NCBI GenBank assembly: GCA_003220075.1 | Contig: QHRJ01000042.1 | Location: 4,374 to 46,539, forward strand | Reading direction: 5' to 3' | DNA: 42,166 nucleotides | From: Verrucomicrobiota bacterium | Lineage (GTDB): Bacteria; Verrucomicrobiota; Verrucomicrobiia; Chthoniobacterales; UBA10450 | Part shown: in pieces, positions 713-33,744 of the stretch | How the letters are laid out: the number at the start of each line of letters is the position of its first letter | Position numbering within the stretch: position 1 is the stretch's first letter | Program-made: the position numbers and the translations under genes | The notes under the pieces: model-generated | Seen by the model: only the letters and a program-made list of their open reading frames with translations | The model's database searches: none | What the model was told of the DNA's origin: nothing

Positions 713-898
713 CACGGATTACACGGATAACGCAGATAGGGAAGCGATTCAGAAGGACTGGTAGGGCGCGCGACCCGGGCTTGTCCTGCTGTCCTGAGTG
801 AAGTCCAAGGAGGCGCGCCGAATAAAGCGTCGAAATTGTAGGGCCTCTGTGTCAGACGCCAGCCAAGAACTGATCCGTGACATCCGTGTCATCCGCGG
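713..898. repeat. MITE-like intergenic element bounded by inverted CACGGAT / ATCCGTG heptad arrays
   Basis: The left end is CACGGATtaCACGGATaacgc (713..733). The right end gATCCGTGacATCCGTGtcATCCGCGg (872..898) is its inverted counterpart. The GC-rich core contains ggtagggcgcgcgacccgggc. The 15-mer cggataacgcagata (724..738) recurs exactly at 22423..22437. Confidence 0.45.
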
Positions 899-1618: not shown

Positions 1619-4063
1619 TCACGGTTTCTTTTCCGTAACGAGTTCCTGAAAGCGAGGATCGTTACGGATCGAATCCCAGATCGGGTCAAGGCGCAGAAGT
1701 GCCGGGACAATCTCGGTGGGTGCGGAGGTTTGCACCAGCCGTTTTAGAATGGGAATAGCATGGTCGGCGTCGCCCAACAAAGCGTAGATCTTAGCCATGG
1801 CCGCCTCTCTGCCGGGACCTTCAAATGGATCCTCGGAGCTGGGCTGCATGACCATGCCTTTTTGTCCTTCGGCCACAGCTGAGGCTGCGTCGCCCAGGCC
1901 TGCGTAGGCGACGCCCAAATTAGAATGCAGTTCCGCCGCCGGACCAGCATCTGGTGCTGCTTTCCCAAGTTCCCGTTGGAATTCCTGCGCTGCTTGTTGA
2001 TAGGCGGCTCTCGCGGCGGCCACGTTACCGGCGCGCTGCTGAGCCAGGCCAATATCAAGAAAAAGCCCCGCCTTCTCTCGGTCCGACTTGTCATTCAACC
2101 CTTTCCCCAGAATATCTACGACCTCGGCGTAACGCCTCTTAATCATAGCGTAGTAGCCGCGGGCCTCCACGTCAGTATGCGGATTCGCAACCATGGCTTC
2201 TGCCGCTTCGAGGTCTCCCATCGCCAAAAGATTAAATGTCTTGATCCCAATGCCCGATGCATTCGTCGGGTCGACGGTGAGGATGTGGTCCGCTATGACC
2301 AGCGCGTCCGAAAAATGGCGGACAGCCACATAGGTTAGCGCAAGAGCAGAAGCGAAGGTGATGTTACGCGGATCAAGTTCGACGGTGCGGCGCAGCGCCG
2401 CGATCGCTTCATCCCAATGCCCAAGTCGCCGTTGGATCAGGCCCATCGCCGCCAGGACGTCAACATTGTTAGGAAGGTTCTTCTCAGCTAGCTGGAACTC
2501 CGCTAACGCCCCGTTGAAATCACGCTCTCCGTAATAGCGGTAATAACCAAGAGCAAGATGAGTTTCCGGCAGGTTTGCGTCGAGCGCGAGCGCATGATCG
2601 AGGGAATCCTTGGCCGCCGCCAGCCGCGCCGGGCTTGGATCGAGTCCTAACCAGTAACTATTACTCTGCACACTGGAGAGACGTGCCCAAGCCAGTACAA
2701 AAGTGGGTTCCAACTTCACTGCCTCTTGATAGGAATGGATCGCACCGTCCACGGTAGGCTTATCAAACGGGGAGCCAGCTGCAAATGCGCGACCACGCAG
2801 ATAGGCATCGTAGGCGGCGGTATTGTTCGTCGGCTTGGCCTCTACCCGCGCTTTTTCCTGCGGACTCAACGTGGCGCCTACACCCGCCGCAATCTCCGTC
2901 GCCAACTCACCCTGCAAGGCAAGTGAATCGGCCATGGTGCGATCGTAGTCTTGAACCCAGATGTGGCGATCCGTTAACGCATCGATCAGTTGTACCGAAA
3001 CGCGAATATGGTTCCCAGACCGACGTACACTTCCCTCGATGACATTGCTGACACCGAGTTGCTGCGCAATTTCTTTGAGATTGCGGGTAATGCCAGTCTT
3101 ATACTGCATCACAGACGTGCGACTGATCACCTTCAGATCCTTGATCTTGGCCAGACTAGAGAGCAACTCTTCCTGAATTCCATCAGCAAAGAAAGCGTTC
3201 GCTTTTTCCTCACTCAGATTGTCCAGCGGAAGAACGGCAATGCTTTTGTCAGGAATGGATACAGCGATTGCGCTGGATTTCGGAGCCACCCGATGAGATA
3301 GAAGCCAGGTACCAGTAATTCCGGCAACTACCAGTAAGGGTATGCCGATTATCAGCGACCGTTTGCGTGTAGCGATCCTGGAAGCGCGATGATCGAGCGC
3401 GCTTTGTTCCTCCCGGGCGCGCTTTATTTTTTTTGGTAGCTCAGGATTGCCAACTTCATCATCGTAGAAGTTGACTACTTCAACGCGGACGCCGTGTTTA
3501 ACTTCGACAGCTCCTAGTTCATGCAGGTATGGTTGCCACTCCTCATACTGGCCCAGGTCATCCGCGACGCGCTTAGCGAGAAGGATGTGACCGGTATCAC
3601 CACAATCCATCACTCGCTGCGCCATGTTAATGCCAGCCCCAGCGACATTCGATCTATCATTCACATCGGTCACACCGCTGACTGGACCGCTGTTGATCCC
3701 CATCCGGAGTTGTAGGGCGAGCGCTCCCGCTTGCTGCCATTCTTCCCCGGCAAACGGGAGCGCCTGCCCTACAGCTTTGCTGATTTCGATGGCGCATTTC
3801 ACCGGGGCGTCGGGACTGGTAAAGAAAGCCAGCGCCATCCCGTCACCGGTCGGCAAACGCACCAGTTTATCAGCCGCTTCGGCACGACGGAATTGTTCCG
3901 TGGCACGAACTATTTGATTCAATTGCTGGAGTAACTCGCTCTGCCGATTAATCGGCAAGTTGGAGTATCGCACGATGTCGACAAACAAGACATGCGCGAT
4001 CTCAAGCTGACGATCTGGTTTATCTTCGGAAGACATGCGAATCGCGCCTGAAGGGTCTAGCAT
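1619..4063 (-). CDS. class III adenylate/guanylate cyclase fused to a TM helix, a TolB-N-like periplasmic module and TPR repeats (paralogue 1)
   Basis: Cyclase motifs are LEIAHVLFVDIVRYS, GDGMALAFF, RMGINSGPV and NVAGAGINMAQRV. There is one TM helix (LIIGIPLLVVAGITGTWLL), then IAVLPLDNLSEEKANAFFADGIQEELL, then TPR repeats. The likely true start is ATG 4036 (MSSEDKPDRQLEIAHV). Confidence 0.85.
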   Translation of the reverse strand: MLDPSGAIRMSSEDKPDRQLEIAHVLFVDIVRYSNLPINRQSELLQQLNQIVRATEQFRRAEAADKLVRLPTGDGMALAFFTSPDAPVKCAIEISKAVGQALPFAGEEWQQAGALALQLRMGINSGPVSGVTDVNDRSNVAGAGINMAQRVMDCGDTGHILLAKRVADDLGQYEEWQPYLHELGAVEVKHGVRVEVVNFYDDEVGNPELPKKIKRAREEQSALDHRASRIATRKRSLIIGIPLLVVAGITGTWLLSHRVAPKSSAIAVSIPDKSIAVLPLDNLSEEKANAFFADGIQEELLSSLAKIKDLKVISRTSVMQYKTGITRNLKEIAQQLGVSNVIEGSVRRSGNHIRVSVQLIDALTDRHIWVQDYDRTMADSLALQGELATEIAAGVGATLSPQEKARVEAKPTNNTAAYDAYLRGRAFAAGSPFDKPTVDGAIHSYQEAVKLEPTFVLAWARLSSVQSNSYWLGLDPSPARLAAAKDSLDHALALDANLPETHLALGYYRYYGERDFNGALAEFQLAEKNLPNNVDVLAAMGLIQRRLGHWDEAIAALRRTVELDPRNITFASALALTYVAVRHFSDALVIADHILTVDPTNASGIGIKTFNLLAMGDLEAAEAMVANPHTDVEARGYYAMIKRRYAEVVDILGKGLNDKSDREKAGLFLDIGLAQQRAGNVAAARAAYQQAAQEFQRELGKAAPDAGPAAELHSNLGVAYAGLGDAASAVAEGQKGMVMQPSSEDPFEGPGREAAMAKIYALLGDADHAIPILKRLVQTSAPTEIVPALLRLDPIWDSIRNDPRFQELVTEKKP
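3711..3773. repeat. 63-nt two-armed palindromic element lying inside the cyclase paralogue 1 coding sequence
   Basis: The sequence is tgtagggcgagcgctcccgcttgc ... ggcaaacgggagcgcctgccctaca. Its reverse complement matches 7287..7349 at 55 of 63 positions without gaps (hand alignment). Confidence 0.75.
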
Positions 4064-4121
4064 CTACTTTCCTAGCTGCGTTCGCCACCGTCGAGACGAA
4101 AGCGCCGCTTCGTTTTTTTAA

Positions 4122-6473
4122 TTACGGTTTCTTTTCCGCCACGAGTTCCTGAAAACGCGGATCATTGCGAATCGAATCCCAAATGGGATTTATGCGCATC
4201 AGCTCCGGTGTAATCTCTGTGGGTGAGGAAGTATGAAGCAGGTGCTTGAGAATGGGAATCGCTTCATCAGCATTCCCAAGTAAAGCGTAGATTTGTGCCA
4301 TTTGCTCCTGGCGCTCCGGGCCTTCAAACGGATCCTCGGAAGTCGGTTGCAACGCAATACCTTTTTTCCCTTCGGATATCGCGGAGTCTGCGTCGCCCAG
4401 TCCGGCGTAATCGACACCCAAAAGAGAATGCAGTTGTGCAGCAGGACCCGCATCCGCAGCGACGGTGCTCAACTCTTGTGTTATCTCCTGGACTCCTTGT
4501 TGATAGGTCACCTTTGACGCCGCCACATTGCCGGCGCGCTGCTGGGCCAGGCCAAGGTCGAGCAGAATCTCCTTCTTTTCATCGCCGCGTGCGTCCTTCA
4601 ACGCTTTCGAAAAAAGATCTGCCGCCTCAGCATAGCGGCGCTTGTTCAGAGCCTGGTGGGCGCGGAGATGCAAGCTTGCACCAGGATTCGCGACTACCAG
4701 GTCCGCAGCCTCCGGATTTCCCATTGCCCAAAGGGACCATGTTTTGAGGTTGACAGCCTGTGTATTCGGCGGTTCGACGGCAAGGATGTGGTCACATACG
4801 ACCAGGGCGTCGGAAAAACGCCGCGTGCTAATATAGCTAAACGCAAGAATAGAAGCGGACTCGATGTTACGGGGATCGAGTTCGACGACACGGCGCAGCA
4901 CCGCTATGGCTTCATCCCAATGGCCAAGGCGCCGCTGGATCAAGCCGATCGCCCTTAGCACCCCAACATCGTTAGGAAGACTTTTCTGCGCGAGCTGGAA
5001 TTCTGCGAGTGCTCCGTTAAAATCGCGCACTCCGTAGTGGCGGTAATAACCAAGCGCAAGATGCGTTTCGGGCAGGGTAGGCTGAAGCGCGACAGCATGA
5101 TCAGCGGCATCTTTAGCTGCCGCTAATCGGGCCGGAGTTGAGTCAATTCCAGTCCAGTAAACTGAACTCTGCGCACAAGAAAGATACGCCCAGGCCAAGG
5201 CAAAGCTGGGATCCAAAGTTACAGCCTCTTGAAATGAGCGGGCCGCGCTCTCCTGATTGGATTGATCTGTGGTTAAACCGGCCGCAAGCGCGCGCCCGCG
5301 CAGATAGGCGTCATAGGCAGCCGTATTTTTTGTTGGCCGAGCTTCCACCCGCGCCTTTTCCTGTGGACTCAGCGTCGCACCTACTTCGGCGGCAATCTCG
5401 GTGGCGAGCTCCCCCTGAAGAGCGAGCGAATCGGCCAGCGTGCGATCGTAGTTCTGCACCCAGATATGGCGATCGGTCAGCGCATCGATCAGTTGCACGG
5501 AAACGCGAATATGGTTTCCGGAGCGCCGCACACTGCCTTCCACTACGTTGCTTACTCCCAGTTGCTGCGCAATCTCTCGGAGATTACGCGTGATCCCACT
5601 CTTATACTGCATGACCGAAGTGCGGCTAATCACTTTCAGATCTTTGATCTTGGCCAGATTGGAGAGCAATTCTTCCTGGACGCCATCGGCGAAAAACGCG
5701 TTCTCTTTTTCTTCACTCAAGTTTTCCAAAGGAAGAACAGCGATGCTTTTGTCCGTTATAGTTGAGTTCGAGCGCGTCGGTCTCCGCGAAACAATCACGA
5801 ACGCGGCTACTATGGCGCCGAGCAAAAGCAGTGCGGTTGCCACGGCACCCCAGCGCAACCGAGCTCGATGCTTCTTAAGCATCTCAAACTTTTTCGGAAG
5901 CTGTGGATTGCCAAACTCGTCACCATAAAGGTTTGCCACGCCGACACGCAGGCCGTGTTTGACTTCACATGCGCCAAGGTCATGCAGCAACGGCCGCCAC
6001 GGATCGTATTGGTCGAGATCTTCGGCGACACGTTGCGAAAGCAGGATATGACCAGCATCGCCGCAATCCATCACGCGTTGTGCGACATTGATCCCGGCGC
6101 CGGCGACATTGGCCCGTCCCGTCACGTCAACAAGTCCGCTGATGGGACCGCTGTGTACGCCCATCCGCAATTGCAGTTTGGGGTGGTTCTTGAGCGCGCG
6201 GCTGATTTCCGTCGCACACTGCACTGGCCCTTCCGAGCTGGTGTAAAAAACCAGCGCCATGCCGTCGCCCGCCGGAATCTTTACTAACTTATCGGCCGCT
6301 TCGGCCTTCTGAAATTGTTCCGAGCCGCGAACGACTGAAGTCAGTTCATCCACCGCCGCACGCTGGTCATTTATCGAGAGCTTGGAGTAACCCACGATGT
6401 CGATAAAGAGGACATGCGCGATCTCCAGCGAGACCTCTTTTTTGACTTCGGTTGTCATTGCTGCCGACACCAT
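4122..6473 (-). CDS. class III adenylate/guanylate cyclase / TolB-N-like / TPR protein (paralogue 2)
   Basis: It has the same architecture as 1619..4063: LEIAHVLFIDIVGYS, GDGMALVFY, RMGVHSGPI, a TM helix, IAVLPLENLSEEKENAFFADGVQEELL, TPR repeats and the tail DPRFQELVAEKKP. The likely start is ATG 6458. Confidence 0.85.
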   Translation of the reverse strand: MVSAAMTTEVKKEVSLEIAHVLFIDIVGYSKLSINDQRAAVDELTSVVRGSEQFQKAEAADKLVKIPAGDGMALVFYTSSEGPVQCATEISRALKNHPKLQLRMGVHSGPISGLVDVTGRANVAGAGINVAQRVMDCGDAGHILLSQRVAEDLDQYDPWRPLLHDLGACEVKHGLRVGVANLYGDEFGNPQLPKKFEMLKKHRARLRWGAVATALLLLGAIVAAFVIVSRRPTRSNSTITDKSIAVLPLENLSEEKENAFFADGVQEELLSNLAKIKDLKVISRTSVMQYKSGITRNLREIAQQLGVSNVVEGSVRRSGNHIRVSVQLIDALTDRHIWVQNYDRTLADSLALQGELATEIAAEVGATLSPQEKARVEARPTKNTAAYDAYLRGRALAAGLTTDQSNQESAARSFQEAVTLDPSFALAWAYLSCAQSSVYWTGIDSTPARLAAAKDAADHAVALQPTLPETHLALGYYRHYGVRDFNGALAEFQLAQKSLPNDVGVLRAIGLIQRRLGHWDEAIAVLRRVVELDPRNIESASILAFSYISTRRFSDALVVCDHILAVEPPNTQAVNLKTWSLWAMGNPEAADLVVANPGASLHLRAHQALNKRRYAEAADLFSKALKDARGDEKKEILLDLGLAQQRAGNVAASKVTYQQGVQEITQELSTVAADAGPAAQLHSLLGVDYAGLGDADSAISEGKKGIALQPTSEDPFEGPERQEQMAQIYALLGNADEAIPILKHLLHTSSPTEITPELMRINPIWDSIRNDPRFQELVAEKKP

Positions 6474-6569
6474 TCCCGTTTTGCCGGCAAAAATCGAGTT
6501 TTAACGAAGAAAGAGAAAAGGCGCACCGTTCTTGCGAACGATGCGCCTCTCTTAGAAAGAAGAAGTTTA

Positions 6570-6885
6570 TCATGGCGAGATAAGCCATCATGGGTGAGTT
6601 TTTCAGGAAGCTGTGAAAGGCTTCCATCATCTCAACGACGACGACGTTTTGGCAGGTGTCGATGAACTGATGGTAGGTCTCGGCGGCGTCGGCCCAGCTC
6701 CAGGTATCGGTAAAGGCGTGGAATTGTGCCTGGCTTACTTCGCCGCTGGTTTCGCGAAAGAGGACGTTGTAATCGGCATTGGAATTAAACGGCGGGTCAA
6801 GATAAACGAGATCGACGCTGGCGTTCGGGAACTCCGTGGTGTTCCGAAGCCATCCGAGATTATCGCCGAAATACAACCGGTTCAT
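6570..6885 (-). pseudogene. 5' fragment (about 105 codons) of a beta-class N6/N4 DNA methyltransferase
   Basis: The sequence MNRLYFGDNLGWLRNTTEFPNASVDLVYLDPPFNSNADYNVLF...AQFHAFTDTWSW...MMAYLAMI contains DPPF (motif IV). The AdoMet-binding half of the enzyme is absent. The rest of the 6367..6885 track ORF is read-through into the region upstream of the cyclase. Confidence 0.7.
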
Positions 6886-7285: not shown

Positions 7286-7350
7286 TTGCAGGGCAGACGC
7301 TCCCGTCTGCCGGGGCAAAATGGTGGCAAGCGGGAGCGCTTGCCCTACAA
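7286..7350. repeat. 65-nt two-armed palindromic element, intergenic twin of 3711..3773
   Basis: The sequence is ttgcagGGCAGACGctccCGTCTGCCggggcaaaatggtGGCAAGCGggagCGCTTGCCctacaa. It has two 8-bp-stem hairpins flanked by TGYAGGG / CCCTACA ends. Confidence 0.75.
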
Positions 7351-7351
7351 T

Positions 7352-7478
7352 CTAAAACTTCTTCTTCAAGGAGACGTACCAGAATTGTCTTTTGATATCG
7401 AAGGTTTGTTCGTCGCAGCCGTTCTCAAACGTTCCGGCGCCAAAAGGAGGATCCAAATCGAACGCCGACAGCGTTATC
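7352..7478 (-). pseudogene. relic of the last 41 codons of a second TonB-dependent receptor
   Basis: The minus-strand translation is ITLSAFDLDPPFGAGTFENGCDEQTFDIKRQFWYVSLKKKF*. It matches the tail of the intact receptor (LTLGMQNVFDSNPPFAGGAFENGYDESLADIKGRFWYVQLKKRF*) at 25 of 41 positions. It starts immediately after the intact gene's stop codon. Confidence 0.65.
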
Positions 7479-10400
7479 TTAGAATCTCTTCTTTAGCTGG
7501 ACGTACCAGAACCGGCCTTTGATATCGGCAAGCGATTCATCGTAGCCGTTCTCGAACGCTCCGCCGGCGAATGGCGGATTGGAATCGAAGACATTTTGCA
7601 TTCCAAGCGTGAGAGTCGTGTCATTTAGCCAAGCGCGCCAACCACATGTACTGTACTCTGCGGTAGAGATGGGCGCGACACTTTTCTCCTTACCATCGTG
7701 CATCTTCACATTCTTACCGCCATCCTTCGCGTAACCGGCTACTTCTTGCTGAGCTACCGGCACCGGTAACTTAAACGTATAAGAAGCGATCAGGTCGAGC
7801 GTGGTCCACTCCCGTATTTTGCGCGGCTTCGAGCCGCGACCGACTAGGTCGATATTATCATCCTGATACTGGCCGGTGTAGTGAACTGTCCCGCCGACAT
7901 CGAAGCCGGCGAGCCAGGTGTCAACCGGCCCGTCCCAGAACGCACTGGCAAAGGCTCGAGTATGCGGCATCGATCCGCTGAAGTTCAATCCAACCGGAAA
8001 CCCACCTGAGAGCCCAAAGCGGTGAGTGTCGGGACTCGCCTGAAACTCAAAGCGGGATAGATAAGTCCCGTTAAGGGTGAAGGTAAGCCTGCCAAAATCA
8101 CCACGGCCAAAGGTCGATGAATTCAGAATATAGATCGCTTCGTAATCAAGACCTTCCACCACCGCGCGTGTGAGGTTTAAACTGGGATTGATGACCTCCG
8201 TGATTGGATCGGGAAACATCGGAGTTCCGGCCATCGGATTACGAATCACCTCCCCCGGAAAGCTGCTTTCATGATCGATAATGAATTGCGGGTCGACGGT
8301 GGACGCAATCGATCGAAGGTCGATATGCCAAAAATCAGCGCTCAGGGTAAGACCTTTGATCCATTTCGGGCCGTAGACGACTCCGTAAGACCATTCATAG
8401 GCAACCTCCGGCTTCAGGAGCGGGTTTCCCTGGGTGATTACCCGGATCCTGGTGCCGGGCTGGGTCAAATTCTTTGGATCGCGAGCATCATCGGGAACCG
8501 ACGCGAAACCCTCGGTCCCTGCCGGGGTAAGGTCGGGTAATGTCGGCGCATGAAAGGCTTCGCTGTAAGTGCCACGCAAGGTGAGCACGCCAATCGACTT
8601 GGGGTCAAGCGGCTGCCAGCGAATGGAGAACTTCGGCTTCTGCGCATCAAACCGGGAGTGTTCCTCAGGCAAAACCGAAGGAGCAGTCGTCGCAGATGTA
8701 TTCTGGCTGTACCATTCTTCGCGTTCAGCGATGTCGAACTCGAGACTGTACGCTCCCGGCAACTCCCACGCCGGGCTGGCGATTGGAATCCGCACTTCCT
8801 GATAAGTTGACCAAACGTCGCGGTTCACCTTTGAGGCTTGGAAATCCTGGGAACCAATTGTGTCAAAACTGGTGTTCTCCGAGTCTGGATCGCTCCTCCA
8901 CCTTTCCCCGTGGTAATCGAGCCCGGCCGCAAAGGAGACTGGCCCGGCGGGAAGATTGAACAGATCCCCATCGAGATGGAAATAAGCCAATGGCAACTCA
9001 AACTGGCCGGTGGCATGGAGCGTAACGTAGACCCGGCTTATTGCCGCCTCGGTGTTCTTACCCTGGAATCCAAGGAACGGGTTAAACGCTGTGGCCGGAT
9101 CCGTATCCAGCAGCGCTGCGCGTAAGCCAGCCCGGCTAACAACGCCGCCGGTGAGGTTTTCCTCCTCGTTGCGGGAATAGCGGAAACCCAATTCCCAATT
9201 CCAATTCTTGAAGTAATCTCCAAACTCTCCCATCTGGCCGCGAACTCCGGCATCAAACAGCATGTCGTGGAACGTGTTTTTGGATGTTCTGACGGCTGCG
9301 TCGTTAATGCCGCGAAAGCGAACCCCGGTGCTCACCGGCGTGCCATCGGGCAAAGTCGCATCTGCGACCGTGAAGGGATTAAACGGATTTTGGATTGGCA
9401 CGCTGATCCCGGCAGGACTGAAGGTATCGCCGTTCGATTGCTTGAACGCATCCGGGTCGAACGGAGTAGCCGCCAGGGCGGCATCAAAAAATGAGCGGGT
9501 ATATTTGAAGTCCGCAAATACCTCTAAGTACTTGTCACAAATATCGCGCGTGAAAGAGCCATAGAAGCTCTGACGATCCGCCGCCGGAATCGATGGCGTC
9601 AAAGCCGCGAAGTTGTAGAATTGGAAGTTGCCATCCGGATAACTAAGACCTTTTGGAACCGCTGAACTAAAAATATTGATGTATTGCGGACTCGCCGCGA
9701 CGTTCGGAAACGCGTGTGGGGTGGGAGTGATTACACCTGGGAGCAACTGGTAGAAGTTCAGTTGTCCATTAGCTATTACATTCACCCTGCCGGGAAGATT
9801 GGGACTGCGATTATCAAATCCGCCCCACGCATCTTGGTTCGCGTTACTGCTAATGTTGCGGTCGCGACTGTAGATTGCGGCCCGATCGTAGGCATCGGCA
9901 ATAATCACGATATCGGTCTTGTCATCCCCCGTTCCGGCAATCATCCACGTCTCGAGCTCGCGTGCGTCATTGGAGGAGCCCAGATTCGTATTGCCAATAC
10001 TGCCTCCGATCTCCAGACCACGGAATTTGTGTTTCAAAAAGATATTGAACACACCCGCCACCGCATCACTCCCGTAAACCGCCGAAGCCCCATCCTTCAA
10101 GATGTCGATGTGATCAATCATTGGAAAGGGAATGAGATTAATGTCCACTCCGCTAGTGCGGGGTGCAGCGCCCCCGGTCCCGCCATTCAAAGTCCCGCCA
10201 CTCCCAATTATCGCGACACGCTTTCCATCGATGAGAACGAGAGTCTCCTTAGGTAGCAAGCCGCGCAGATTGGGAATGACAGCGCCATCACCGCCATTGG
10301 CGATGTTCTGGTTGATGGTCGCGCCCATTTCCTGCGGCAGCTTGTTAAGCAGGTCAGTTGTGTTGCGCACGCCTAATCTCTCGATGTCTTCTGTGCGATA

Positions 10401-12636: not shown

Positions 12637-12689
12637 CTAAGGGCGGGGCGAAGCGGCCAAATGCTCTGACCTTAATCGAGGAGAAAGAA

Positions 12690-12744
12690 CACAGATCGCG
12701 GGTGTCTTGGGAATGGGGGCAGGAGATCGTTCGCGAAACGCCGG
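12690..12744. repeat. dispersed copy of the repeat unit found in tandem at 33647..33744
   Basis: The sequence cacagatcgcgggtgtcttgggaatgggggcaggagatcgttcgcgaaacgccgg matches 33690..33744 at about 48 of 55 nt. It lies between the convergent rpsA and glmS genes. Confidence 0.6.
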
Positions 12745-19777: not shown

Positions 19778-19897
19778 TTGTAGAGGCGCTTGTGCCAAGC
19801 GCCTATCGAATGTGTTATCCGGCGGTTCAACAATTGTTAGGGCGCGGATCTTCGCCGCCAATTTCAAGACCGGCGGCCAGAATGACCGCCCTACAAC
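19778..19897. repeat. REP-like elements of the TGTAG...CTACA type
   Basis: One hairpin is ttgtagAGGCGCTTGtgcCAAGCGCCT (19778..19804). A 64-nt two-armed unit follows: ttgttagggcgcggatcttcgccgcc ... cggcggccagaatgaccgccctacaac (19834..19897). Confidence 0.5.
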
Positions 19898-21126: not shown

Positions 21127-21213
21127 CGTCATCCCGAGCGTGGGTTGAGGGATCCCGATGCGTTACGCTCAAGCTTTCATGGCGAGATCCCTCGACTTGC
21201 GCTCGGGATGACG
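21127..21213. repeat. 87-nt perfect-ended palindromic element
   Basis: The arms are cgtcatcccgagcgtgggttgagggatc (21127..21154) and gatccctcgacttgcgctcgggatgacg (21186..21213). Single arms of the same motif (ctcgacttcgctcgg-a-atgac) occur at 6903..6924 and 7013..7034. Confidence 0.7.
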
Positions 21214-33464: not shown

Positions 33465-33646
33465 GCTATAGTGGGTTCTCGGCGGGGGCCCGCGCCTGCT
33501 CCAATCTGATTTGGATCGGAAATCAGGATTCAAAGACGCGAACCTGCTTAGCGCAATCCTTAAAGGTTTGGATGCGGAATGTTCGATGCTTCGTACTAAT
33601 GAACCCGACGCCCTTACCTCAATTCTCTCCCTGACGCAGGGGAGGA

Positions 33647-33744
33647 CACAGGTCGTGGGTGCCTTTGGAAATCAGAGTGGGAGACCGTACACAGGTCGCG
33701 GGTGTCTTGGGAATCAGGGCAGGAGACCGTAAGCGAAGCGCCGG
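33647..33744. repeat. two tandem 42-43-nt repeat units plus shared flank
   Basis: Unit 1 is cacaggtcgtgggtgcctttggaaatcagagtgggagaccgta (33647..33689). Unit 2 is cacaggtcgcgggtgtcttgggaatcagggcaggagaccgta (33690..33731). Unit 2 plus its flank is repeated at 12690..12744. Confidence 0.65.

Follow-up and report, generated by a model that had tools for sequence, protein, structure and literature searches.

A GTAG-type REP doublet translated within the cyclase homology domain of a Verrucomicrobiota class III cyclase, and the conservation of its arms

The stretch of DNA analysed here, called the window throughout, comprises 42,166 nucleotides of a Verrucomicrobiota bacterium (Verrucomicrobiia; Chthoniobacterales; UBA10450), from position 4,374 to 46,539 of contig QHRJ01000042.1 in the assembly GCA_003220075.1. 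It carries two tandem cyclase genes, and the cyclase domain of the first contains a 63-nt palindrome (3711..3773) that is translated in frame. The host gene of this element, paralogue 1 (1619..4063, minus strand), encodes a protein of 814 aa with a cyclase homology domain, a TolB-like region and tetratricopeptide repeats (TPR). The class III cyclase homology domain extends over aa 23-191 (3491..3997, minus strand) and matches PF00211 with 30.7 bits, the cut-off being 21.9. Paralogue 2 (4122-6473) encodes 783 aa. Where paralogue 1 reads ...EISKAVGQALPFAGEEWQQAGALALQLRMG..., paralogue 2 reads ...EISRALKNHPKLQLRMG..., with an uninserted loop at 6171..6197 on the minus strand (GCG CTC AAG AAC CAC CCC AAA CTG CAA, that is, ALKNHPKLQ). 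The contigs Ga0209267_1015630 and Ga0066700_10005545 are 99.5% and 96% identical to the window, respectively. Protein comparison suggests an organism probably within or near Chthoniobacterales, with 89.6% identity between the segment 6568-6885 and a gene of a Chthoniobacterales metagenome-assembled genome (MAG), while other segments of the window match Verrucomicrobiae MAGs.

A repetitive extragenic palindrome (REP) of the GTAG type is recognised by a GTAG head with a short hairpin behind it, and a REPIN is a pair of REPs in inverted orientation with a short spacer between them. The 63-nt palindrome is such a doublet, translated inside the cyclase gene. It is built of two inverted 25-nt REP units and a 13-nt spacer between them, and both arms start with TGTAG. 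Unit A (3711..3735, plus strand) reads TGTAG followed by GGCGAGCG, the loop CTCC and CGCTTGCT, and has a GTAG head, an 8-bp stem with two G-T pairs and a 4-nt loop, an assignment based on the sequence and on the stem covariation of the family described below. Unit B (3749..3773, minus strand), assigned from its sequence, reads TGTAG followed by GGCAGGCG, CTCC and CGTTTGCC. The spacer lies at 3736..3748. The whole element folds into a near-perfect hairpin of -42.9 kcal/mol on the plus strand and -45.3 kcal/mol on the sense strand of the gene (z = -7.2 and -7.9, respectively), and none of 200 shuffled sequences was as stable. The arm motif TGTAGGGCNNNCGCTCCCG, allowing up to three mismatches, occurs six times in the window against 0.46 expected, a count that none of 100 shuffles reached. 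No Rfam RNA family was matched at the element, the sole Rfam match in the window being a tRNA, and neither the cyclase copy nor its intergenic sister at 7287-7349 contains an intrinsic terminator.

In the minus-strand reading frame, the 63 nt correspond to 20 whole codons, together with one base of the Ala codon before them and two of the Gln codon after them, and encode (A)VGQALPFAGEEWQQAGALAL(Q). The first-pass annotation of this DNA, made from the sequence alone, had described the two inverted arms, their in-frame translation and the ALKNHPKLQ of paralogue 2 at the same place, and all three are borne out exactly as it gave them. It had also proposed an insertion of 13 additional codons with the frame preserved. 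A codon-level comparison of the paralogues upholds the gain and the frame, as the span from GDG to RMGxxSG measures 54 residues in paralogue 1 and 41 in paralogue 2, but not a clean insertion. Between the shared anchor residues there are 19 residues versus 6, and around seven native codons are gone. Since the element contributes 20 whole codons and the net gain is only 13, the event is a net replacement of about seven native codons.

The location of the insert within the enzyme was modelled with AlphaFold (aa 1-230, 36 homologues, mean predicted local distance difference test score, pLDDT, of 86). The insert, aa 96-117, falls between a helix (86-100) and a strand (119-132) and is modelled as coil with a pLDDT of around 50-67, whereas the neighbouring blocks exceed 90. 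It is therefore predicted to form a disordered surface loop, the alpha3-beta4 loop in cyclase nomenclature, in agreement with the surface position that the first-pass annotation had suggested checking. The top Foldseek matches of the model are class III cyclases, such as Rv1900c (1ybt, probability 1.00), and 1AZS is also among the matches.

The same repeat is found elsewhere in the window. In an ungapped alignment, the reverse complement of 3711-3773 agrees with 7287-7349 at 55 of 63 positions, as first reported, and this similarity stands far above the next best ungapped match in the window (32/63). No inverted repeat in the window is longer than the one formed by these two copies, 3.5 kb apart (64 nt, 88% complementary in a repeat search), and they share 11 of 15 spacer positions. 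The intergenic sister REPIN (7287..7349) has one arm, TGTAGGGCAAGCGCTCCCGCTTGCC on the minus strand, that is the commonest sequence of the family and forms the perfect stem GGCAAGCG-CTCC-CGCTTGCC; its other arm, TGCAGGGCAGACGCTCCCGTCTGCC, is a compensated variant with the stem GGCAGACG-CTCC-CGTCTGCC. The heads are TGTAG on one arm and TGCAG on the other. The idea that this copy is a cyclase pseudogene fragment was rejected, its flanks being unlike those of the cyclase element. It starts 3 nt past the stop codon of the downstream 3' remnant of a TonB-dependent receptor, whose 3' end is present as a 127-nt tandem duplication (7353-7479 and 7480-7606, 75-78% identical), both units ending in ...F-stop. 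Two further intergenic elements are a degenerate doublet of a related REP variant (19835..19895), with the right arm TGTAGGGCGGTCATTCTGGCCGCC on the minus strand, and a single REP of a related variant, TGTAGGGCCTCTG TGT CAGACGCC (837..860, plus strand). The former lies between aldolase-like and LpxD-like open reading frames (ORFs), names inferred from the ORF translations alone. In total, one intragenic and three intergenic elements are present in 42 kb.

Beyond the window, a scan with the exact pattern GTAGGGCNNNCGCTCCCGNNNGC over one genome per species returned at least 114 matching stretches. Among the matches listed, those with the full TGTAGGGC head and a complementary stem are concentrated in MAGs of Verrucomicrobiota/Chthoniobacterales, often with an inverted partner, and most doublets sit where the longest spanning open frame is short (less than around 160 aa). 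Single matches in Actinomycetota, Gemmatimonadota and other phyla, which lack the leading T and a partner arm, were taken as chance; around 70 such matches are expected by our estimate for 17 fixed bases in 596 Gb. In the loci examined, 19 strict doublets were found, and recurring types of partner arm include GGCAGGCA-TTCC-TGCCTGCC and GGCAGGCG-CGTC-GCCTGCC. Covariation supports the proposed fold. For 30 distinct family arms, with TGTAGGGC...GCC as the sole selection criterion, 95% of the cells of the 8-bp stem are paired, compared with 82.7% in shuffles, none of which reached 95% in 500 trials; all five variable stem pairs changed on both sides, while slid controls gave 26-56%. All 30 arms have the same TGTAGGGC head, although the search pattern itself contained it.

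In relatives, this REP family of soil Verrucomicrobiota (Chthoniobacterales) is associated with tyrosine transposases of the REP-associated kind (RAYTs). A motif search found small Y1/HUH proteins adjoining the repeats. The protein encoded at 5079-5504 of locus L010 scores 93.4 bits on the NCBIfam model NF047646, "REP-associated tyrosine transposase" (cut-off 80), and its gene lies between doublets at 4991-5051 and 5503-5568, each with one TTCC-loop arm and one CTCC-loop arm. The downstream REPIN supplies the stop codon of this gene, as the TAG within its GTAG head (5500-5506), so that gene and repeat overlap. In locus L133, a RAYT gene (3918-4403; 91.2 bits on the same model) stands directly downstream of a cyclase gene of the same family as the host gene in the window. 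The best match of its product in the Protein Data Bank (PDB) is the E. coli TnpA-REP 4ER8 (E = 1.8e-11), compared with E = 0.05 for an IS200-type TnpA. Doublets of a sister type, TGTAGAGGCGGCCG-TGT-CGGCCGC, stand on either side of this RAYT gene, at 3790-3898 and 4408-4508. The TGT loop of these doublets resembles that of the single REP at 837-860 of the window and of one in L196. Several REP types thus coexist in the group. Two more proteins, in L059 and L091, reach 84.2 and 77.3 bits, respectively, on the same model (cut-off 80), and the L091 gene is found among four REP copies. The RAYT may mobilise the REPs through cleavage and joining at the GTAG hairpin, a step for which the copies with similar spacers in unrelated contexts, named below, give indirect support.

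The age of the cyclase insert can be read from its distribution. In 119 classifiable top homologues (63-100% identity), the loop from GDG to RMGxxSG is uninserted, with 41 residues, in 78, and 41 carry the insert or a collapsed, decayed or expanded derivative. The loop measures 54 residues in 25 proteins, 53 in six, 65 in four and 39 in three, with single cases of 76, 48 and 43 residues. The DNA of 18 insert-bearing genes from soil metagenome loci shows that their spacers are variants of GGGGAAGAAYGGCRG, while the spacers of dispersed REPINs are very diverse. From this homology it follows that the cyclase inserts descend from one ancestral event. Copies with similar spacers in unrelated contexts are the window cyclase copy, its intergenic sister and L061 2555-2618.

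Several lineages have altered the insert. The 39-residue form reads GTA GGA CAG GCG CTA CAG, which is the insert minus 45 nt of the hairpin interior, and is two codons shorter than the uninserted loop; it is therefore an in-frame deletion footprint and not an empty site. In the 53-residue form the left arm is decayed, and the 65-residue form contains a further 33 nt (TCCGCCAGTCGGACGGACTCGTCCAGGGGCGAG) within the left REP arm (L117 3792-3890; L127 358-456). Protein P0029 has yet another 11 residues, with nested additions within the translated REPIN. A proposed orthology between the window and locus L001 through downstream synteny was dropped, the neighbouring proteins being unrelated, and only homology is claimed.

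The distribution of the insert is patchy. A neighbour-joining tree was built from the cyclase domain only, with the loop masked; it replaced a tree of full-length proteins in which near-identical sequences were split apart, probably by recombination between domains. The insert-bearing genes fall mainly into two groups of the domain tree, each mixed with uninserted genes. Genes without the insert have retained a normal loop, such as EINQQIRNHPELPLRMG, and so deletion cannot explain the patchy pattern. Tandem arrays of two to four cyclase paralogues per locus are present, and short-tract gene conversion among them would be the simplest explanation of the patchiness. An 8-nt block, AGCAAAGC (AGC AAA GC, SKA), lies upstream of the element in the sense direction (window 3774-3781). 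It is invariant in all nine distinct insert-bearing genes compared (including L001, L002, L120, L126, L127, L132 and L142), is missing from the intergenic copies and may mark the edge of a conversion tract.

With the neighbouring codons as an internal clock, the REP hairpins are found to be constrained at the DNA level even when translated. Nine distinct genes of the 54-residue type were compared over the insert and 360 nt of flank. Pairwise identity ranges from 64 to 94% in the flanks at all positions and from 35 to 86% at their third positions, but from 87.5 to 100% in the arms. The spacer (53-100%) evolves like ordinary coding DNA, and the boundary of conservation at the arms is sharp. Third positions vary in two of the 16 arm codons, four of the five spacer codons and 108 of the 120 flanking codons (arms versus flanks, Fisher p = 2e-10). 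When only the codons whose amino acid never changes are considered, the difference persists (2/13 in the arms versus 58/67 in the flanks, p = 1e-6).

Within each arm the stem complementarity is preserved, while arm-to-arm mismatches are conserved too, a pattern that points to a constraint on the individual REP hairpins and not on a single long hairpin of the mRNA. The left arm of L142 is the other common variant of the family, GGCAGGCATTCCTGCCTGCC (GGCAGGCA-TTCC-TGCCTGCC), the very type that flanks the RAYT gene of L010. According to the quasispecies model of REPINs, a copy fixed at one locus and not renewed is expected to drift from the master sequence and decay, but the cyclase arms do not. 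At synonymous sites they are still held at the commonest sequences of the family, and a process at the DNA level therefore continues to act on them, whether a REP-binding protein recognises them or other copies correct them. Candidates for the cause of this conservation are selection for such recognition, correction from other copies and co-option by the gene. The third-position constraint on the arm codons of a translated REPIN is what is novel here.

The explanation considered very probable is that a REPIN of the RAYT-associated GTAG-type family entered the alpha3-beta4 loop of the cyclase in the ancestor of the subfamily and was then inherited and spread. One copy would have entered this surface loop in the ancestor of the cyclase/TolB-like/TPR subfamily, replacing the native codons. 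The insert would have been tolerated, with neutral consequences for the enzyme, because its net 39 nt (13 codons) are a multiple of three, this reading frame contains no stop codon, and the peptide, rich in Ala, Gly, Leu, Gln and Pro, would form a disordered loop away from the conserved core. It would then have been inherited and passed among tandem paralogues via duplication and short-tract gene conversion, and some lineages would have partly deleted, decayed or expanded it.

Several observations weigh against this explanation. The event is a net replacement and not a clean insertion, and no target-site duplication is found at the cyclase junctions, so the mechanism of insertion is not readable there. 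The genes with the insert are spread over the domain tree in a way that takes 12 parsimony steps, and gene conversion or repeated loss is needed to account for it. The synonymous conservation of the arms is unexpected for a purely passive passenger. No RAYT gene is present in the 42-kb window, where a motif search for a Y1 transposase found none. Finally, in around 610 kb of cyclase-centred loci of relatives, CTCC-loop REPs are almost only found inside cyclase genes, and some carriers may be REP-poor.

Among the alternatives, a chance palindrome or a structure that arose in situ, unrelated to any repeat family, has practically no probability left. A GC-rich background is all that speaks for it, and it is ruled out by the match at a second locus, far over the background maximum, and by identical arms in dozens of Verrucomicrobiota loci, where family arms flank RAYT genes. 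A recent and private insertion into paralogue 1, the empty site being preserved in paralogue 2, had been implied by the first-pass annotation. It would agree with the lack of the insert in paralogue 2 and with a nearby intergenic copy of similar spacer. However, the same codon is occupied, with a homologous spacer, in many homologues 63-92% identical from many soil metagenomes (down to around 63% protein identity). Together with the existing deletion and decay derivatives, this refutes a private event, which is left with hardly any probability.

The conservation of the arms is where the ancestral-insertion explanation meets its more serious competitors. Repeated conversion from paralogues, or from other REPIN copies of the genome, could overwrite the arms so that they look conserved with no need for selection, and this is a real, if minority, prospect. 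It would account for the patchy distribution on the domain tree, for the invariant upstream block that travels with the insert, for the arm of L142, identical to the type beside the L010 RAYT, and for the arrays of paralogues. Conversion between paralogues, however, would also homogenise the spacer, which diverges approximately like the flanks, and conversion within a genome leaves the identical arms across metagenomes unexplained, barring one shared master sequence. Co-option by the host would instead assign the conservation to host-level selection and not to the biology of a mobile element. The hairpin would be kept for the cyclase mRNA or DNA (pausing, an RNase site, stabilisation or protein binding), or the loop peptide would be regulatory. 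Conservation of the arms at synonymous sites far above the flanks and the great stability of the hairpin in the sense RNA fit this idea, and in mammalian cyclases regulation is known to act on the surface of the alpha3-beta4 loop (as in the Gs-alpha/C2 complex, e.g., 1AZS). Nevertheless, it is the exact family sequence that is conserved, loop letters included, and not the mere ability to pair. The preserved 8-bp stems and conserved mismatches between arms are better accommodated by recognition of single REPs than by a long mRNA hairpin, the element has been deleted or has decayed in several lineages whose ORF is still intact, no terminator-like feature or Rfam match exists, and the loop is predicted to be disordered. 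Co-option is accordingly regarded as unlikely.

A bolder possibility, put forward tentatively and thought rather doubtful, is that the two REP hairpins are actively held at the master sequences of the family inside an expressed catalytic domain in which synonymous neighbours are saturated, and are not a dead passenger. If so, either a REP-specific process (a RAYT, another REP-binding protein or templated correction) would act on copies at a fixed locus, or this cyclase subfamily would have co-opted REP units as a cis element in its own coding sequence. The arm swap in L142 would then be a trace of renewal in place. The locus bears on the question of why REPINs persist, whether through host benefit, continued interaction with the RAYT or correction of copies. 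It allows one insertion to be traced through dozens of diverged gene copies (intact, arm-swapped, decayed, reduced to the footprint of a 45-nt deletion, or expanded), and would illustrate how tandem arrays of paralogues can spread such an insert. By itself, the insert is another example of a known phenomenon, in which small palindromic repeats add protein loops in frame.

Among the closest known precedents are repeats of the same phylum. Di Nocera, De Gregorio and Rocco (2013, PMC3733652) sorted REPs into the GTAG and CGTC superfamilies and catalogued intragenic GTAG REPs and dimers, with the highest number in the verrucomicrobium Opitutus terrae (GTAG-17/18/19). More than half of these inserts are dimers encoding 20-30 residues, for example VGPALAAGREQRARLPAAGERPPY. 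The Opitutus terrae repeats share with the cyclase element the GTAG head, the short GC-rich hairpin that follows it and the occurrence of inverted dimers in frame in known genes, and the GTAG-18 peptide VGPALAAG... starts like the VGQALP... of the cyclase insert. They differ in the sequence of the stem and loop (GGCAAGCG-CTCC-CGCTTGCC here) and in the order of the carriers, here Chthoniobacterales-like soil bacteria. The targets of the catalogue include a TonB-dependent receptor, an N-6 DNA methylase and TPR proteins, as well as tRNA synthetases in other species, but no nucleotidyl (class III) cyclase; the word "cyclase" appears once in its supplements, for a diguanylate cyclase/phosphodiesterase of Sphingomonas (PMC3733652). 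That study was concerned with single genomes, did not track one insert across homologues and did not report conservation at synonymous sites. The suggestion that this type of element had not been described is contradicted by that catalogue. In the case of the cyclase insert, both the family member and the host gene are new, but the kind of element is not.

REPIN-RAYT systems, on which a study by Nunvar et al. in 2010 reportedly also exists, resemble the present case in other respects. Their REP doublets are inverted and fold into a long hairpin, repeats surround a single RAYT gene, and persistence is vertical (Bertels and Rainey 2011, PMC3116915). The REP/TnpA-REP system of E. coli (4ER8) belongs to the same comparison; for the RAYT homologues found here, NCBIfam scores exceed the equivalog cut-off and 4ER8 is the best PDB match. 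Classical REPINs are extragenic by definition, whereas the cyclase copy is translated. Membership of the MITEs (miniature transposable elements bearing inverted repeats) was not adopted: no target-site duplication is seen, the flanks of the cyclase copy being AAGC|...|ACTC, while those of the intergenic copy at 7287-7349, AGAT|...|ATCT, are an inverted extension and not a direct repeat.

The Rickettsia palindromic elements (RPEs), reportedly the subject of a study by Ogata et al. in 2000, were the comparison offered by the first-pass annotation. The resemblance holds for behaviour. RPEs are palindromic repeats found in frame in unrelated genes and translated as extra segments compatible with the fold of the host protein, as described in a review of in-frame MITE and RPE insertions (PMC10969869). 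It does not extend to membership, as no dedicated transposase is known for elements of the RPE-1 type, which are repeats of Rickettsiales with a length of around 100-150 bp. RPE-4 and RPE-6 were equated with CGTC REPs (PMC3733652), while the cyclase element, in carriers of the Verrucomicrobiota soil type, belongs to the GTAG superfamily; no alignment to RPE consensus sequences was made for this comparison. The likeness to RPEs may thus be seen as one of in-frame placement and a tolerated peptide.

Copies of the family in frame were also found in three other genes, in each of which the insert has a strong Pfam match to either side. A DNA methylase/Mrr-type protein (L007 968-3055) contains the insert VGQALPPAAGKRRQPGTVALQ at 2653-2715, a carbamoyltransferase (L039 5-1897, also in L018) has a 93-nt insert between its two Pfam domains, and an Ile-tRNA synthetase gene (L115 869-3643) includes a degenerate doublet at 3230-3279. 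The loci L018 and L039 are more than 99% identical and uninformative as a second test of rates. ORFs of more than 200 aa that span doublets in L020, L043, L047 and L060 have no Pfam match and were not counted as intragenic, nor was the permease of L035, where the element lies upstream of the domain. In the window, a 172-aa ORF (6367-6885, minus strand) overlaps the start of cyclase paralogue 2 and shares 89.6% identity across 106 aa with the N-terminal part of the Chthoniobacterales DNA methylase of L007. It looks like a truncated methylase remnant, and the full-length L007 gene is the one that itself has an in-frame REPIN.

Two repeats of other kinds were observed in the window. A 65-nt direct repeat (12680-12744 and 33680-33744) is 85% identical between copies 21 kb apart, with a third, partial copy at 33646-33670. 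An unrelated inverted pair of 31 nt at 21127-21213, CGTCATCCCGAGCG...CGCTCGGGATGACG, is 84% complementary, with 25 nt between its members, and possibly represents a second small repeat family. Similar motifs, GTCATCCCGAGCG...GAGGGATC, adjoin REPs in L028 and L088.

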